DNA of 59,062 nt, filler included, from 7 parts of 7 records of this genome joined end to end with filler, not necessarily neighbours in it; one strand, 5' to 3'. Counted from the whole stretch's first letter, positions 51,421 to 59,062 are shown. Notes: generated by a model from the sequence alone, not told the origin. Made by a program: numbers and translations.

Positions 51421-51578
51421 CCCTAATCTCCTCTATGGTTGTCAATCATGAATGCCGGACTATACCAGAATCGCCATCCCGAGAAAAGAACAAAACCCCT
51501 TGCTTTTTTCAAAAAGACTATATATTAATTTCAATTATCACAACTTTAATACATAGCGACTTCACATTAGGTGACACC

Positions 51579-52334
51579 ATGAAGATCAGCAAGGAGCAGA
51601 AAGAGAGCAACCGCAGGGCGATCATCGCCGCCATGGTCGACATCGTCACGGACCAGGGGTTCAAGGCCGCGACCATGAAAAAGATCGCCCGGCAGAGCGG
51701 CCTGGGGGACGCCACCATCTACAACTATTTCCCCACCAAGGAAGCGATCCTGTTCGGGTATTACACCGACCATTTCACCGCCTGCATCCAGCGGCTCAAG
51801 GAGGTGCCGGACCTCAACGAATACTCCCTACAGGAGCAGATCCAGACCTTTTTCGAAATAAGTTTCGACCTTTTCCAAGGGGACCGGGAATTTGTCGCCC
51901 TCACCTTTAAACAAGTATTTTTCTCCTACAGCCAGAACTACAAACGGGTCAAGCCCATCCGGGCGAGCTTCACCGCCATCATCCGGGACATGGTGGAGGC
52001 GGCCGTGGAGGTGGGGGAGATCCCGGACCAGGTGTTCCAGGAGGTCATCGTCCAGCTTTTCATGGATTTTTACATCACCATGACCGCCCACTGGATCGCG
52101 GACCAATCCGACGATTTCAACGATACCGCCATCCTGATCGACAAGAGCCTTGACCTGGCCGTGGCCATGCTCAAAGCCGGCATTGCCAACAAGATCCTGG
52201 ACATCACCGTCTTTCTCTTCCGCACCCATGTGCTGAACAACCTGGGCGGGGTCCGGGAGGGCATGGAGACGGTCCGTTCCATTAAACGCAAATTCATGGA
52301 GACGCACCATGCCGAAGGAAATTCCCACAGGTAA
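51579..52334 (+). CDS. TetR-family transcriptional regulator
   Basis: HTH ATMKKIARQSGLGDATIYNYFPTKE. Confidence 0.9.
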   Translation: MKISKEQKESNRRAIIAAMVDIVTDQGFKAATMKKIARQSGLGDATIYNYFPTKEAILFGYYTDHFTACIQRLKEVPDLNEYSLQEQIQTFFEISFDLFQGDREFVALTFKQVFFSYSQNYKRVKPIRASFTAIIRDMVEAAVEVGEIPDQVFQEVIVQLFMDFYITMTAHWIADQSDDFNDTAILIDKSLDLAVAMLKAGIANKILDITVFLFRTHVLNNLGGVREGMETVRSIKRKFMETHHAEGNSHR

Positions 52335-53604
52335 ATTCAAACGAAGCGTCACCGGCACCGGCACGGCCGCACGGGTCGGGGGAAAGATGCTGACCTACCT
52401 TGCAAAACGCCCGTTTCTCTCCCGGGACGGGAAGGAAAAGGCAAAGGAAGAGATGGCGGCCCAGAGCGGTGAGATTCTCTTCCAGGGCCTAAGCGTACTC
52501 AGGGGCACCGCCCTCAAGGTGGCCCAGCAGCTGAGCCTGGAGCTTGACCTTTTTCCCCCGGCCGTGCAAAAGGAACTGGAACGATCCTATCACCAGGTGC
52601 CGCCCCTGAACCGGGCCCTGGTGTCCCGGGTGATCTACAAGGCCCTGGGCCGCCATCCCAACGAGGTATTCGCCGACTTTGACACCCGGGCCTTTGCCGG
52701 GGCCAGCCTTGGCCAGGTGCACCGGGCCACCGCCTTTGACGGACATCCCCTGGCCGTCAAGGTTCAGTATCCGGGCATGGCCGCCACCATCAAAAGCGAC
52801 ATCCAGATGATCAAGACCCTGGTGCGGCCCATGCCGGACCACCGCCTGATCCTGCCCTCCATTCTGGAGATCGAGCAGCGGCTCCTGGAGGAGATCGACT
52901 ATTACAGGGAGGCGGACAACCTGGAACGGTTCAAAAAAGCCCTGAGTCTTCCGGGCATCGCCATTCCGGACCTGGACAGGACCGCCTCCGCCGGCACCGT
53001 GCTGACCACCACCCTGATGCCCGGCCTTCCCCTGGACCAGTGGCTGGCCACCGGGCCCAACCAGGCCATGCGCGACCAGGTGGCCCAGGGCCTCTACGAC
53101 CTCTTTCTTGAAAGCCTCTACCGCCACCATGCCATCCATGCGGACCCCAACCCGGGCAATTTCATCATCCAAAACGATCTCACCATCGGGGTGATCGATT
53201 TCGGCTGCATCAAGCACCTGCAACCCGCCTTTGCCGACCTCTACCGTCAGCTGCCCCGGACCCTGGCCCAGGGAGACAAAACCACCTACCAGGACCTGCT
53301 GGAGCAGCTGAAAATCCTCAAGCCCGGCATTCCCCCGGCCGACCGGCAAAAATTCCTCCAGGCCGCCTATGAGCTGGGCCGCTGGTTCGGCGAGTACTAC
53401 CGACCGGACCGGTTTGATTTCGGGGCCGACCCGGGCTTCATGGCCCGGGGCAGGGCCCTCATGACAGCCCTTTACCAATTGAGGGGCCATTTTGATTCCA
53501 ATCCCGAATTTGTCTATCTGGACCGCACCCGCTACGGCCTGATTCGGTTGTTTGAAAAGATGAAGGCCCGGGTGAGAATGAAAAACGGCTATGAATGGCA
53601 ATAA
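52309..53604 (+). CDS. ABC1/UbiB-family atypical kinase
   Basis: LKVAQ, GASLGQVHRA, AVKVQYPG, HADPNPGN, IDFGC. Confidence 0.92.
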   Translation: MPKEIPTGKFKRSVTGTGTAARVGGKMLTYLAKRPFLSRDGKEKAKEEMAAQSGEILFQGLSVLRGTALKVAQQLSLELDLFPPAVQKELERSYHQVPPLNRALVSRVIYKALGRHPNEVFADFDTRAFAGASLGQVHRATAFDGHPLAVKVQYPGMAATIKSDIQMIKTLVRPMPDHRLILPSILEIEQRLLEEIDYYREADNLERFKKALSLPGIAIPDLDRTASAGTVLTTTLMPGLPLDQWLATGPNQAMRDQVAQGLYDLFLESLYRHHAIHADPNPGNFIIQNDLTIGVIDFGCIKHLQPAFADLYRQLPRTLAQGDKTTYQDLLEQLKILKPGIPPADRQKFLQAAYELGRWFGEYYRPDRFDFGADPGFMARGRALMTALYQLRGHFDSNPEFVYLDRTRYGLIRLFEKMKARVRMKNGYEWQ

Positions 53605-53897: not shown

Positions 53898-54545
53898 TTA
53901 TTTTAAGGACTTTCTTCTGTTAAACCAGGCCCAGCCAAACAGACCAAGGCCGAAAAGAGTGAAGGTGGCGGGTTCGGGGATTTCACTGGTCTCCCAACTA
54001 CTTAAATCTATGGTAACGCTTGGGTTGTTTTCGTTGTCTATAACAGCGGCGATCTCTGTGTCGCTGAGGGCACCAATTTCGTCCTCTTCAATAATTCCAT
54101 CTCCGTCAGTGTCCAGACCAGAGTAGTCGTCAACGGCAGTCAATGTCGAACTTCCACTAGTGGATTCAATCACAAACATGGTTCCAGACGTTCCAGTGGT
54201 GACCCAATAATCAATTGTATCAATGCTCCAATCAGAGGTATTCAGAGTAACTGATGGATAGCTGCTTGTCCAGTCAAAGGCGTCATCGTAATAGGTTGTT
54301 CCGTCTATTCCCAGAGAAATTGTGAACAACGAGTCATAGGCATCATTACCCACTGAGCCGTTGTGCATACTGTAACCACTGTCTTTATATCCCTGGTCAG
54401 TGTCAATGGTGAATAAAATTGAAACGTCGCTGCTATTAAAAGGTAAAGAGTACGAATATTCAAGCATGGTTGCATTGGCCGTACACGCCAATGCCGTAAC
54501 AAAAAATATGACTAACAAAAACTGGTTAATTTTTCTTGATAACAT
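53898..54545 (-). CDS. PEP-CTERM surface protein, acidic and S/T-rich, with an EF-hand-like loop
   Basis: Signal peptide (ANA cleavage), DTDGDGIIEEDE, C-terminal IPEPATFTLFGLGLFGWAWFNRRK; AGGAG RBS. Confidence 0.93.
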   Translation of the reverse strand: MLSRKINQFLLVIFFVTALACTANATMLEYSYSLPFNSSDVSILFTIDTDQGYKDSGYSMHNGSVGNDAYDSLFTISLGIDGTTYYDDAFDWTSSYPSVTLNTSDWSIDTIDYWVTTGTSGTMFVIESTSGSSTLTAVDDYSGLDTDGDGIIEEDEIGALSDTEIAAVIDNENNPSVTIDLSSWETSEIPEPATFTLFGLGLFGWAWFNRRKSLK

Positions 54546-54570
54546 GTGAAATCTCCTGATTTTATTTTAA

Positions 54571-54714
54571 TTAACTTGCAGCAAGAATAAAAGTTGGGCC
54601 GCTAGTGGTCCCACATGTACGTCGTGACTGCTTGCATACGGCAAGAACGCTTTCTTCAGGCCTGCAGCGAACGATAACAACGAGTTTTGGATCTTCATAA
54701 ACTTTCTTTTTCAT
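54571..54714 (-). CDS. Putative RiPP precursor peptide (47 aa)
   Basis: Not in the ORF track. MKKKVYEDPKLVVIVRCRPEESVLAVCKQSRRTCGTTSGPTFILAAS*; AAGGAG RBS; YxxPxL leader motif; follows the radical SAM gene. Confidence 0.82.
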   Translation of the reverse strand: MKKKVYEDPKLVVIVRCRPEESVLAVCKQSRRTCGTTSGPTFILAAS

Positions 54715-54789
54715 AAATTTCTCCTTTTTTTTTTGATCCTTCTTACGATTTTCTCCTAAGAAGTAATTATTACATTATTTGATCTATGT

Positions 54790-55914
54790 TCACTTTAGAT
54801 AAGGAACATCTTCGAATTTTTTCCACGCCCTGTGTCTTTCGTTGGCAACTTCGCAAAAATACGGTGTATAGCCGTCTAACTGACCTGTTTCCAGATCTGC
54901 GTGGGCCGGGCACCATGCGCAGATGTCGTGCAGGGTGCATGTGCCGCAGTTTTCGATGTAATGGCTGCGGACTGAGGTGCGCTTCAGGATGTCAGGGGTG
55001 AAATGATTCCAGGCCCGGGCCAGGGTATGCGTTTTAAGATCAAGGGTGCAGGCCTGGTTAACAATAGACGGGCAAAGCTGGTATTTACCGTCCCATCCGA
55101 TGGCGCAGGTATTAATGCCAGCCTGGCATTTAAACAGCGTATTCACATATTGGACGGTGCTGTTGTTTTGGTTTTTGCAGGTCTGCTCCAAGGCCTTGTA
55201 TCTTTGGGGGTCTTTATTATCCAGGGCTGCGATCTGCTCCGGCGTCAGACGCTGGGACACAATAGATTTGTTTCTATGGGGATCTTTATCTGCTCTCAAC
55301 TGGAGACATGGGTCAAATCGAAAAGGCCGGTCTGATTTTGACCGGCAAAACTCTGCGATGTTATCAAAGTCCGGAAGATTGGCCTGCATGATTGTAGATT
55401 TAAGGATGACGGGGAGATTTGCGGACAAAAGTAGATCAATACCTGTCATGGTTGATTCAAATGTATTTTTCCGGGTGACGTTTTTGTGGACTTCCGGGGT
55501 GGTGCCGTAGACAGACACCTCGATTTGTCTTGGCGGATATTTTTTAAACAACCTGATGTGCTCATCTGTTACAACAGAGGCGTTGGTAAACACAGACACA
55601 AATATCCCCCGGGTTTTTATGTGGGTGTAAATTTCCGGGAAATCAGGCCTGAGCAGAGGCTCGCCGCCGCTCAGCAGTATCCATAGGACGCCCAAGTCAA
55701 CTGCCTGGGCTGTTATGTCTTTTATTTCATTCAGGCTCAGTTCTTTTTCAAAGGCCTGCTGGTCATGGGCCGGCCGATTGATGTAACAATGAACGCAGTC
55801 GTTGTTGCACCGGGCGGTTAGATCCATAACCATGGAAAGAAGAACTCTATTTTTTTTGGCCTGTTCCCAGACCGGAAGGCTTGCAATGGAGATGTTGTGA
55901 TCAGGGCTGTACAT
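54790..55914 (-). CDS. Radical SAM/SPASM peptide maturase
   Basis: CNNDCVHC, SGGEPLL, FTNAS; SPASM-type CQAG...C...CP...CGTC...CAWCPA. Confidence 0.93.
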   Translation of the reverse strand: MYSPDHNISIASLPVWEQAKKNRVLLSMVMDLTARCNNDCVHCYINRPAHDQQAFEKELSLNEIKDITAQAVDLGVLWILLSGGEPLLRPDFPEIYTHIKTRGIFVSVFTNASVVTDEHIRLFKKYPPRQIEVSVYGTTPEVHKNVTRKNTFESTMTGIDLLLSANLPVILKSTIMQANLPDFDNIAEFCRSKSDRPFRFDPCLQLRADKDPHRNKSIVSQRLTPEQIAALDNKDPQRYKALEQTCKNQNNSTVQYVNTLFKCQAGINTCAIGWDGKYQLCPSIVNQACTLDLKTHTLARAWNHFTPDILKRTSVRSHYIENCGTCTLHDICAWCPAHADLETGQLDGYTPYFCEVANERHRAWKKFEDVPYLK

Positions 55915-56377
55915 GACGGGTTAATTTTTTCAATATCCTGGCTGAGGGAAGAAAAAGGGAGTTGAGCAGACCTGCTTTTGAGGCCTGGGCAATGAGTTTG
56001 TTTGTCCAGGATGCCGGTGTGGCTTGCCGACCGTTAGATTCAATGGCCTGGACCCGGCCCAGCAGGTCTTCCCTGTTGAACCAGCCGTCACTTTCCAGAT
56101 TGTTGTCGCCTTTTACCTGGTACTGGTTGTTTTTACGGGCAATAATTCGGTGGACGACCATTTTCCGGTATTTGTGCATGGCCGCAAGGACGATATCCCC
56201 TGTTTCCAAGGTATGGGACGGTTTAAGGACCGCCAGGGTCAAAAGACTGTCATGGCGAATGAACGGAGTCATGCTGTAGCCCGGACACTGGAGTTTAAAC
56301 CGGCATTTTTCAGACTTGCTGAAAAATGCGGTCATCATGGTATAAAACTCTTCTCCTGTCGGGTTCAGGATGTCCAT
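55901..56377 (-). CDS. S24/S26-like peptidase (no obvious TM segment)
   Basis: GYSMTPFI, GDIV, VVHRII, KGDNN; overlaps both neighbours. Confidence 0.85.
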   Translation of the reverse strand: MDILNPTGEEFYTMMTAFFSKSEKCRFKLQCPGYSMTPFIRHDSLLTLAVLKPSHTLETGDIVLAAMHKYRKMVVHRIIARKNNQYQVKGDNNLESDGWFNREDLLGRVQAIESNGRQATPASWTNKLIAQASKAGLLNSLFLPSARILKKLTRHVQP

Positions 56378-56661
56378 TCAACAATGAGTTCCTTTTCAAG
56401 CAGTTCGGTGACAAGTTTTTTTACGCCTTGTTCGATTTGATCCATACCAGAGTCATACTCTTCGGCAATGGCCGCACAGATCTGGCCTATTGTTTTTTTT
56501 TGTTCGATACATTTCCAGGCAAGGGCACCGGTCTCATTAAAGGAAAACATCGAATCACTGAAATCGGCAATGCCTGATTCAATGGGAACAATGACGATTT
56601 CACCCATGATATCTCTGGAAATTATTTTGTCTGACGGGGCATAACTCTTATCTGGGTCCAT
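56365..56661 (-). CDS. PqqD-family RiPP recognition element (RRE)
   Basis: SRDIMGEIVIVP, FSFNETGALAWK, IAEEYD, LLEKELI. Confidence 0.9.
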   Translation of the reverse strand: MDPDKSYAPSDKIISRDIMGEIVIVPIESGIADFSDSMFSFNETGALAWKCIEQKKTIGQICAAIAEEYDSGMDQIEQGVKKLVTELLEKELIVEWTS

Positions 56662-56666
56662 TAAAC

Positions 56667-57545
56667 TTACATTCCTTTCAGCAGATTGTAGGCCCGACCT
56701 GTTTTGTCAAACTGCAGGTTCCAGCAGGGGACCTGCCGGCAAAGGCCGGATAGAAAATCAAGTGCGTTGTCCCACCAGTCGCGGGTTTCAAGGGGACGAA
56801 TCATGCAGGCCAAAAGACGCTCAAATGCATGACGTTTATCTGTAACAGGGAGAACCTGATTGGTGTTGGCTTTTTCAAGAAAAAAAATGCCTTTTAAGGG
56901 AACGGTTTCCGGAGAGACATCAGGCACGTCTCCGTGGCTCCAAGTGCCGGAGACGAAGTAATTATCGTCTTTTTTGCGTACGATATTACGATCATCGCAG
57001 AGGATGGCGGCCCCTTGTTTCATAATGCCGGCCATGGTGGATTTACCAGCGTCCGAGTGACCGACAAATAAAAGGCCCCGATTATCTAAGCTTACACCCA
57101 GGGAGTGCATGATACAGCCGTTTTTATATGCCAGGATGCGGCCCATGAGAATCTGATCTGTGGGAAACATGGTCAGGCTGGTTAATCCGCCCTTTATAAA
57201 CTTGCCTTTAATGCTATTGTCATTGTAGATATCCAAAAAAGAGTGTTCCTTGTCGGTAACAACGGTTCTAAAATAATTCTCATGGGGAGGCTCTGCCTTG
57301 ATCCACTGGTAAATCCATTGGCCGTCCTGGTGGTAAACGGCCCAAGGCGGTTTCAGATAAACCCGATTTTCAGGCTTTGGCGTTGTCTTGCATGTCTCAA
57401 ACCGATGGTGAAGGACAATATTTTCCTCTAAAGGGCTATTGATTTCAAAATGTTTAAATTTTGGACTGAAGGTGGTGTTCGAAAATGGCAGGTCACTTTG
57501 CACCTCAATGCTCATACCTGCAATCTGAAAGAATATCTTAGACAC
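56667..57545 (-). CDS. HprK-like P-loop kinase (ScmC-like)
   Basis: MHSLGV, FVGHSDAGKST, LCDDRNIV, SGTWSHG, PLKGIFFL; GTG start inferred. Confidence 0.82.
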   Translation of the reverse strand: MSKIFFQIAGMSIEVQSDLPFSNTTFSPKFKHFEINSPLEENIVLHHRFETCKTTPKPENRVYLKPPWAVYHQDGQWIYQWIKAEPPHENYFRTVVTDKEHSFLDIYNDNSIKGKFIKGGLTSLTMFPTDQILMGRILAYKNGCIMHSLGVSLDNRGLLFVGHSDAGKSTMAGIMKQGAAILCDDRNIVRKKDDNYFVSGTWSHGDVPDVSPETVPLKGIFFLEKANTNQVLPVTDKRHAFERLLACMIRPLETRDWWDNALDFLSGLCRQVPCWNLQFDKTGRAYNLLKGM

Positions 57546-57590: not shown

Positions 57591-57612
57591 ATAGCTCCGC
57601 ACGGTCGCCTAC
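57591..57612 (-). repeat. Leader motif copy A (JUMPstart/ops-like)
   Basis: GTAGGCGACCGTGCGGAGCTAT; 19/22 identical to 57916-57937. Confidence 0.55.
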
Positions 57613-57712: not shown

Positions 57713-57741
57713 AATATAGAATAGACGACCCCGCCTGTCAA
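57713..57741 (-). promoter_or_regulatory. sigma70 promoter
   Basis: TTGACA-17 nt-TATATT. Confidence 0.7.
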
Positions 57742-57915: not shown

Positions 57916-57937
57916 ATAGCTCCGCCCTGTCGCTTAC
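57916..57937 (-). repeat. Leader motif copy B (JUMPstart/ops-like)
   Basis: GTAAGCGACAGGGCGGAGCTAT. Confidence 0.55.
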
Positions 57938-58798: not shown

Positions 58799-59062
58799 TT
58801 AGCTGCGCTGGTTAAATTTTTCGTAACTGACCTGATCGTATAAAAGCGTATCAGTACCATGACCATCCATTTGATCTGCAGGATGGCCGATGCCGATAAC
58901 CGCCTGCACCTGGATATGTTCGGGCAGATCAAGGACGTTTGAAATATAATCCGAGGCCGGGGTGCCGTCGTCACGGCTGCGCAGACGCATCTGGGCCCAG
59001 CAGGAGCCAAGCCCTAAATCCGCAGCCGCCAGATGAATAATAATGGCGGCAATGGAGGCATC
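58799..59062 (-). CDS. Nitroreductase-family protein, 5'-truncated
   Basis: DASIAAIIIHLAAADLGLGSCWAQMRLR...VIGIGHP. Confidence 0.88.
   Translation of the reverse strand, partial: DASIAAIIIHLAAADLGLGSCWAQMRLRSRDDGTPASDYISNVLDLPEHIQVQAVIGIGHPADQMDGHGTDTLLYDQVSYEKFNQRS

Follow-up and report, generated by a model that had tools for sequence, protein, structure and literature searches.

A reduced RiPP cassette with a single radical SAM enzyme and a linked PEP-CTERM gene, probably acting in the exopolysaccharide envelope of a Desulfobacter-like bacterium

We analysed a 59,062-nucleotide stretch of DNA (the window), in which contigs of a metagenome-assembled genome are joined by N linkers, and report here on a cassette for a ribosomally made peptide that is modified post-translationally (RiPP) that lies on its last contig (53764-59062, GC 0.444). 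Gene calling placed six genes on the minus strand of this contig, encoding a kinase, a RiPP recognition element (RRE), a peptidase, a radical SAM enzyme, a precursor peptide and a PEP-CTERM protein:

57545-56667, minus strand: HprK/PEPCK-fold kinase, 292 aa, GTG start; the longest open reading frame (ORF) runs from 57602
56661-56365, minus strand: stand-alone RRE of the PqqD family, 98 aa (PF05402, E 2e-16)
56377-55901, minus strand: S24/S26 (SEC11/SipW-like) peptidase, 158 aa (Peptidase_S24), the putative leader peptidase
55914-54790, minus strand: radical SAM/SPASM maturase of clade C, 374 aa (Radical_SAM)
54714-54571, minus strand: precursor peptide, 47 aa, MKKKVYEDPKLVVIVRCRPEESVLAV / CKQSRRTCGTTSGPTFILAAS, the slash marking the predicted border between leader and core
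54545-53898, minus strand: PEP-CTERM surface protein, 215 aa (PF07589 and TIGR02595 above cut-off)

The initial annotation had described six same-strand genes that overlap or lie at most 75 nt apart, which is borne out by the junctions: kinase and RRE genes are separated by 5 nt, the RRE/peptidase and peptidase/radical SAM junctions are overlaps of 13 nt and 14 nt, and gaps of 75 nt and 25 nt precede the precursor and the PEP-CTERM gene, behind which the contig ends after 134 nt. The same order of all six genes is found in five relatives, namely Desulfobacter curvatus (locus L001) and the genomes G822, G820, G827 and G840; D. curvatus is the nearest named relative (85% identity in the radical SAM enzyme, 91% in the kinase). 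Pfam families above cut-off were PqqD, Peptidase_S24, Radical_SAM and PEP-CTERM, HPr kinase being weak and below it, and none of the NCBIfam equivalogs shown for the cluster proteins reached its cut-off. In unsaturated comparisons with four relatives dN/dS was 0.06-0.26 for the genes of kinase, RRE, peptidase and radical SAM enzyme; the precursor gave 0.07-0.18 against four relatives, and the PEP-CTERM gene is less constrained (0.54-0.55 where unsaturated). All six genes are real at the coordinates listed and are under purifying selection.

For the kinase the GTG start at 57545 is the most likely one, the homologues being 292 aa long as well. His166, the Walker A motif GHSxAGKST and Asp203-Asp204 (311-aa numbering) are invariant among 43 aligned homologues and thereby fit the His-Lys-Asp-Asp motif through which the lasso-tailoring kinases PadeK and PsmK are described to modify a C-terminal Ser (PMC9266682; PMC6993621). 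Searching the PDB with a kinase sequence profile yielded weak P-loop matches and nothing stronger; its AlphaFold2 model (pLDDT 90.5) matched PEPCK with a Z-score of 11.7 and HprK with 10.7 (rmsd 2.7, 116 residues). The closest PDB matches of the RRE are 9x90, TbiB1 and 9x8z. By eye, 9x8z and 9x90 correspond to LppB and lasso RRE sequences in the supplement of a report on linear polyphosphorylated peptides (LPP), which are encoded by lppA-K-B-S-D-N in Paenibacillus alginolyticus (Popov et al. 2026; PMC13381572). In the peptidase S35, H76 and D91 are invariant and D97 is present in at least 90% of 34 homologues; SEC11C/A are the closest PDB matches, and the residues line up by eye with S29/H68/D93 of LppS (PMC13381572). 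When RRE, precursor and peptidase were modelled together as three chains, the prediction lent weak support to a complex, scoring 0.55 versus 0.00 for the best of three controls, with 36% contact agreement and a partner pLDDT of at least 76. The mark applied was passed by 51 of 78 solved pairs and 2 of 108 mismatched pairs, passing scores of 0.60 or less came from just 5 of the 78 solved pairs, yet from all 4 passing mismatches, and likeness to RRE-leader complexes that are already solved may add to the score.

The precursor has 11 homologues at 72-94% identity, and its leader carries Y6-E-D-P9-K-L11, which fits the lasso RRE motif [YW]xxPx[LVIAFY]. Family precursors share WxxPxLxVLxRxxPEExVLxxCK (leader consensus WxKPxLIVLVRxxPEExVLxxCK), a Cys core that varies and Ser/Thr as last residue; the latter is present in 138 of the 147 Cys-bearing precursors from loci and in 148 of the best 150 library matches to a profile that itself favours terminal Ser/Thr. 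Leu stands at position -3 of the conserved Cys in 145 of 151 precursors and the -1 residues are mostly small. If this pattern is likened to the cut-site residues F-3/T-1 given for LppA (PMC13381572), cleavage would leave an N-terminal Cys, so that the window precursor would have a 21-aa core with Cys27, Cys34 and the terminal Ser47, a cut site read from the leader pattern. Calculated for the unmodified peptide, the monoisotopic mass is 5193.77 at full length, 2184.08 after cleavage before Cys27 and 2354.18 after cleavage before Ala25. Three of five sister loci without a radical SAM gene have Ser at the conserved Cys position, and no aromatic residue is conserved across the family cores. NCBIfam gave no match for the window precursor or for eight family precursors. 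Separately, an extra leader Cys (C17, in IVRC) is invariant in 12 close homologues and occurs in loci L162, L163 and L167. The lasso-like leader of the initial annotation (YxxPxL) stands, as do its kinase (invariant catalytic residues, modelled PEPCK/HprK fold) and its Ser/His signal-peptidase-like protease.

The radical SAM enzyme has its CxxxCxxC motif at positions 36/40/43, and in the SPASM part C263, C281, C323, C326, C332, C335 and C354 are invariant and C246 nearly so. Structurally it is tied to SuiB, SkfB, anSME, CteB and ChlB (Z 22.8-23.7, 14-22% identity), and its best PDB sequence match is SkfB, with the SAM domain alone covered. Its best 25 NCBIfam matches all lie far below cut-off, the top ones being of AhbD/NirJ type. 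It also falls far short of the StsB cut-off and scores 62 bits for PapB (cut-off 340) and 60 for SkfB (cut-off 300), which places it outside the characterised thioether maturase families. In a tree it groups with clade C of three family clades, in which A is fused to the kinase, B follows the kinase and C follows the peptidase. In-match TAG stops flagged in the radical SAM genes of G820, G827 and G840 had raised the possibility of pyrrolysine. We rejected it, since the TAG in G820 and G827 aligns with residue 364, the natural C-terminus, the G840 alignment stops at residue 362 with no internal stop, and PylS exceeds its cut-off in G840 alone. The G840 match, a pyrrolysyl-tRNA synthetase C-terminal domain (G840:C136:6239-6964), bears no relation to the cassette.

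The window cassette belongs to a much larger family. A kinase profile scan of metagenomes yielded at least 342 confirmed stretches, of which the best 80 were used, and the profile matched in 21 of 401 genomes from the phylum of genome G001 and in 64 of 401 from its order; flanks were studied for 40 order matches and 17 matches from its taxonomic family, picked mostly by score. The precursor profile matched 3,521 clusters (50% identity) at E ≤0.001. Among 161 genomes from the taxonomic family of G001, 21 gave a match to the radical SAM enzyme, and a contig scan with the single radical SAM enzyme as query returned six loci. Usual family loci have two or three radical SAM genes, and fuller clusters add NTP_transf_5 and an MsbA-like ABC gene. 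The window, which has clade C alone, is a reduced, one-radical-SAM form of this large uncharacterised RiPP family; the single radical SAM enzyme noted initially is confirmed.

The number of core Cys residues clearly tracks the set of radical SAM genes, although the evidence is only partly independent of kinship; the tally covers long-leader loci, without duplicates, whose flank reaches 1,300 nt or more, plus the window (810 nt). Precursors had no Cys in 5/5 cases from radical-SAM-free loci, two in 13/16 from C-only loci, three in 20/22 from B+C loci and four in 33/42 from A+B+C loci; Cys counts of L006, L069, L132, L134 and L143 were set by hand in a first tally, the long-leader recount being made without hand edits. 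On the kinase tree (FastTree) clade A and a fourth Cys formed six independent pairs with a mean of 5.6 changing in the same and none in the opposite direction (median p 0.031, range to 0.125), and this is the step that is independently supported beyond kinship. Of the 20 three-Cys B+C precursors, 18 place their last Cys exactly six residues from the end; in 8 of 13 C-only precursors this distance is 13 residues. Two four-Cys exceptions among the C-only precursors each carry two C-x6-C units, which suggests that the clade C enzyme works on a C-x6-C unit. Two readings were dropped during this tally. Short-leader three-Cys loci had appeared enzyme-free, but a related enzyme lies elsewhere in 4/5 genomes tested; and a zero-Cys entry for L120 was an unrelated ORF, the true precursor (L120:11799-11990) having two Cys and ending in Tyr. 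The latter gene is frameshifted in a poly-A run just past its start, through decay or sequencing error.

The PEP-CTERM protein has an N-terminal signal peptide by eye, consists of 25% Ser+Thr and 15% Asp+Glu, and its atlas matches are PEP-CTERM or unnamed clusters. Its residues ~141-160 form an acidic DTDGDG stretch that is possibly calcium-binding (weak XopAW match, E 0.038). For counts of surface genes, loci with less than 3,000 nt of flank and duplicates were left out; a PEP-CTERM gene was present in 20 of the 36 long-leader loci (11 of 12 among those with clade C alone) and in 0 of 13 short-leader loci. Where linked, it sits right behind the precursor, the proteins forming seven unrelated groups. 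With 14-32 PEP-CTERM matches in genomes of 5.6-6.1 Mb, as counted in five relatives, chance adjacency to a precursor is unlikely; an exosortase scored above cut-off in all five. Giant proteins ending in a C25 domain, whose best NCBIfam match is the PorU sortase (242 bits, cut-off 420), were found in 8/13 short-leader and 0/36 long-leader loci. These secreted proteins reach more than 2,800 aa, have conserved GHG and Cys motifs in the C25 end and lie directly upstream of the short-leader cassette (L003, L004, L006, L138, L140, L141, L143, L147, L150, L154 and L156).

Three elements precede the operon:

58255-58241, minus strand: sigma-54-type -24/-12 site TGGCAC-N5-TTGC, a consensus match ahead of the whole operon
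57916-57927, minus strand: leader element GGGCGGAGCTAT, often after TGTAA; a second, imperfect copy lies at 57591-57602
57713-57741, minus strand: sigma-70-type promoter TTGACA-17-TATATT, 11/12 consensus matches; CCTTGACAGGCG is also found upstream in L001, L158 and L159

PEP-CTERM genes typically have sigma-54 sites (PMC1569441). L001 and L157-L160 also have a site like that of the window, at most ~700 nt upstream of the kinase, and within 200 nt of the leader motif such a site is present for 16 of 24 PEP-CTERM-linked precursors, compared with 3 of 142 precursors lacking the link and 6 of 487 other genes (shuffle expectations 0.01, 0.15 and 0.51, respectively). Judged by gene order and these sites, the PEP-CTERM gene is part of the cassette unit in the lineage of the window. 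The GGGCGGAGCTAT element occurs on the cassette strand ahead of the kinase in the window, L001, L011, L157-L160, L162 and L163, and resembles the ops antitermination elements of polysaccharide operons.

Polysaccharide genes surround the cassette in relatives. Of 36 long-leader loci, 24 have Wza, Wzc or outer-membrane barrel genes within the fetched stretch. In G822 and G827 a ~50-kb polysaccharide locus begins with the cassette; it runs for the most part on the cassette strand, is interspersed with some mobile genes and continues with rfb genes, epimerases, flippase, glycosyltransferases, NTP_transf_5, a priming transferase, Wza and Wzc. NTP_transf_5 is located 35-40 kb downstream of the cassette in G822, G827 and G820, and rfb and efflux genes flank the L001 cassette. 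The split contigs of D. curvatus (L001, L174) had suggested that the cassette was excised from an exopolysaccharide (EPS) locus; this was dropped, as G822 and G827 hold both in one locus. Through the PEP-CTERM tail, the position of its gene and these polysaccharide loci, the link to the cell surface proposed in the initial annotation has gained substance. An exporter merely lost at the contig end, as also proposed there, is probably not the explanation: in the four closest relatives rfb genes come next after the PEP-CTERM gene, and the ABC exporter of the family was not found in the four closest genomes.

Among known systems, LPP has the matching core of kinase, RRE and signal-peptidase-like protease. 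Discrete RRE, HprK-like kinase, YxxP leader and an SpI/SipW-like leader peptidase with Ser-His-Asp are common to LPP and the window, and the wider family additionally shares the NTP transferase, the MsbA-like ABC protein and the location in capsule/EPS loci. The radical-SAM-free Desulfobacterales sisters L131, L132 and L134-L136 have an LPP-like gene set with Cys-free precursors, and NTP_transf_5 in range in 3/5. LPP differs in being described from Bacillota, in the absence of a radical SAM enzyme from the main text and in phosphorylation at Ser3 (PMC13381572). The LPP leader reads YxxPxVLxHQxIxFETxxS, of which the window shares just YxxP, its leader ending in EExVLxxCK instead. The window has a SPASM enzyme under selection, core Cys residues, a terminal Ser and a linked PEP-CTERM gene, whereas the NTP transferase and MsbA-like ABC gene of the LPP core are both absent from the window contig. 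The combination of kinase, RRE, S26-like peptidase and radical SAM enzyme had initially been taken as new; its core of kinase, RRE and leader protease is no longer so, being the one that defines LPP. The supplement of PMC13381572 includes Acidobacteriota and one Desulfobacca peptidase, with RREs that fall outside the LPP cluster, and Radical_SAM, TIGR04545 and Peptidase_C25 appear in its domain matrix, so members of the wider family may have been sampled there.

In gene set the cassette parallels SynChlorMet (TIGR04248-TIGR04251), a system defined bioinformatically, whose ScmC loci occur in 17 of 401 genomes. Among eight fetched loci, six have an RRE and two SPASM enzymes, seven an S24/26 peptidase and six NTP_transf_5; several have an ABC gene, and L200 has an adjacent PEP-CTERM gene. 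The composition noted initially (ScmC, a PqqD protein, radical SAM enzymes) was correct, the list being short of the peptidase, NTP_transf_5 and ABC genes. The window proteins fell far short of the Scm cut-offs (ScmC 38/125, ScmD 21/100, ScmE 91/400, ScmF 72/400 bits). In the opposite direction, the clade A/B/C profiles gave Scm radical SAM enzymes just 66-127 bits, and Scm kinases reached 23-56 bits with the kinase profile. Five candidate Scm precursors lack both EExVLxxCK and a terminal Ser, and the SPASM pair of SynChlorMet contrasts with one radical SAM gene in the window, L001 and L157-L160. Lasso peptides modified by phosphorylation and phosphoglycosylation (paeninodin with PadeK, pseudomycoidin with PsmK/PsmN), as far as described, share several features with the cassette: an HprK-like kinase whose motif is His-Lys-Asp-Asp, conservation of a C-terminal Ser, an NTP transferase that is uncharacterised, a discrete RRE and a leader with [YW]xxP; the window core differs in having no Asp/Glu acceptor. 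No lasso cyclase or B2 protease was seen on the contig, where all six genes are assigned otherwise, or beside the cassette in close relatives, no whole-genome cyclase search having been made; to this extent the lack of a visible cyclase is corroborated. Sactipeptide and ranthipeptide maturases (SkfB, CteB, PapB) have the radical SAM/SPASM fold (Z ~23), RRE-type delivery and a Cys core in common with the window, whose enzyme, at 14-22% identity, is not in a characterised thioether family. A kinase, an S26 peptidase and an EPS context are not known features of those systems. The cassette would work like LPP plus a radical SAM enzyme and is built like SynChlorMet, being a member of neither, nor of the lasso peptides.

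We interpret the cassette as a RiPP maturation module for the EPS/PEP-CTERM envelope of a Desulfobacter-like bacterium, with a probability of roughly 0.6 and with chemical steps that we infer as follows. The RRE very probably binds the YxxPxL leader. The single clade C radical SAM/SPASM enzyme would, on balance, form one Cys-based crosslink, probably a thioether, within Cys27-x6-Cys34, and we regard it as quite probable that the HprK-fold kinase (poly)phosphorylates the terminal Ser47. Removal of the leader by the SEC11/LppS-like protease, assisted by the RRE, is very probable, with a position just before Cys27 as the slightly favoured site. More tentatively, NTP_transf_5, encoded further down the same polysaccharide locus, could link the phosphoserine to a sugar, by analogy with PsmN, which is described to add hexose to the phosphorylated C-terminal Ser of pseudomycoidin (PMC6993621). 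Co-produced with the PEP-CTERM protein, the finished peptide would finally reside in the EPS matrix. The likely product is a Cys-crosslinked envelope peptide with a C-terminal phosphoserine, possibly linked to a sugar.

Several observations weigh against this interpretation. The LPP kinase is reported to target Ser3 rather than the C-terminus and deletion of lppN to cause no detectable change (PMC13381572), and the radical-SAM-free sisters keep the kinase, yet the precursors parsed from them have P, P and N as last residues. The ABC exporter was not found in G001, G822, G827 and G820 and was found in one of five close genomes. On a tree of 47 rows the PEP-CTERM link changes just three times, and the window, L001, L158 and L159 have no sigma-54 site directly before the precursor. 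As to the Cys series, the pairings of no radical SAM gene with no Cys and of clade B with a third Cys amount to one supported independent contrast each, and the short-leader sister lineage, with one B-like enzyme and three Cys, breaks a simple n+1 rule. SuiB and ChlB are C-C crosslinkers, SkfB and CteB thioether enzymes; the fold ties therefore cover differing chemistries and do not fix the clade C reaction by structure.

The peptide might instead be a diffusible signal or antagonist, phosphate or sugar serving as tags for self-protection or export and the EPS/PEP-CTERM setting reflecting shared regulation at the biofilm stage only. Triple-enzyme loci with up to 11 precursors, hypervariable cores and an ABC exporter would suit this, as would the patchy spread of the kinase over order and phylum. 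The window lineage, in contrast, has a single precursor that is conserved, no family ABC in the four closest genomes and no obvious immunity gene, and its cassette lies inside polysaccharide loci, so we consider a diffusible peptide unlikely.

A bolder proposal, which we hold to be improbable, makes the matured peptide a ribosomal, crosslinked linker that covalently tethers sorted surface proteins to EPS: its new N-terminus (Cys; Ser/Gly in the radical-SAM-free sisters) would accept a protein from an exosortase or a PorU-like C25 transpeptidase, and its C-terminal phosphoserine would join the polysaccharide. Kinase lineages pair with different sorting systems and never with both (PEP-CTERM for long leaders, C25 for short ones), precursor and PEP-CTERM gene share a sigma-54 site, and the seven unrelated groups of adjacent PEP-CTERM proteins make it seem that the tail matters and not the body; moreover, the exosortase acceptor is described as unknown (PMC1569441; PMC7468200). 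Against a tether, the exosortase lies in a separate locus, in 4/5 genomes beside a FemAB-like gene, the candidate put forward in print as maker of the acceptor (PMC7468200). PEP-CTERM matches are numerous in each genome, yet the radical SAM enzyme is confined to the 21 of 161 genomes given above, a PEP-CTERM gene within range is lacking in 16 of the 36 long-leader loci, and the exclusivity of the sorting systems lies between two clades and is about one contrast. If true, the biofilm matrix of Gram-negative bacteria would have a RiPP among its structural components, the exosortase acceptor would have a candidate, and a modular code would assign one more Cys to every radical SAM paralogue added.

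Least probable is that the radical SAM enzyme forms no thioether and performs epimerisation, anSME-like Cys oxidation or C-C crosslinking, the Cys residues binding metal or making a disulfide; the fold ties to anSME, SuiB and ChlB and the AhbD/NirJ-type matches far below cut-off would allow this, whereas Cys number rising and falling with the radical SAM set, the fixed spacings of the last Cys (6 in B+C, 13 in C-only precursors) and the lack of a conserved aromatic core residue speak against it.

The literature searched, which did not extend to subscription papers, contained no report of this gene combination, and the parts consulted of PMC10288494, PMC10352776 and PMC13692751 give no account of it. 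No product of the family was found in print there either, in agreement with the initial assignment to a RiPP class with no known product. Added here are the Cys/radical SAM series, the sigma-54 unit of precursor and PEP-CTERM gene, and the ~50-kb polysaccharide locus with NTP_transf_5. The family is very large, its members lying in the loci for slime and capsule that anaerobes carry. What LPP and paeninodin peptides do in capsule loci is stated to be unknown (PMC13381572). The 0/2/3/4-Cys series predicts which enzyme acts where. As the simplest radical SAM form, with one enzyme, two Cys and one conserved precursor, and present in a cultured strain (D. curvatus DSM 3379), the window locus is the best entry point for the chemistry.

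Elsewhere in the family, L026:10968-18600 holds eleven precursor genes in a single triple-enzyme cluster. Long peptidase ORFs of 330-400 aa occur at L020:5439-6593, L023:15023-16072 and similar places, that of L023 with a C-terminal GNAT domain; larger clusters repeatedly contain separate genes for GNAT proteins and methyltransferases. In G840 a second, broken kinase copy (L190:10942-11844) lies by the family ABC and Wza/Wzc genes, apart from the intact cassette. The radical-SAM-free loci L131, L132, L134, L135 and L136, from the order of G001, contain kinase, RRE, peptidase, PEP-CTERM, ABC and Wza/Wzc genes; their Cys-free precursors are often Pro-rich, and the clusters resemble a Gram-negative LPP type. 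Within the window, 58799-59062 (minus strand) is the 3' end of a gene that by eye corresponds to the nitroreductase gene upstream of the D. curvatus cassette (L001:1391-1942). Outside the cluster, the preceding contig (GC 0.59) carries at 51435-53604 (plus strand) a TetR_C_23 regulator followed by an ABC1/UbiB atypical kinase.

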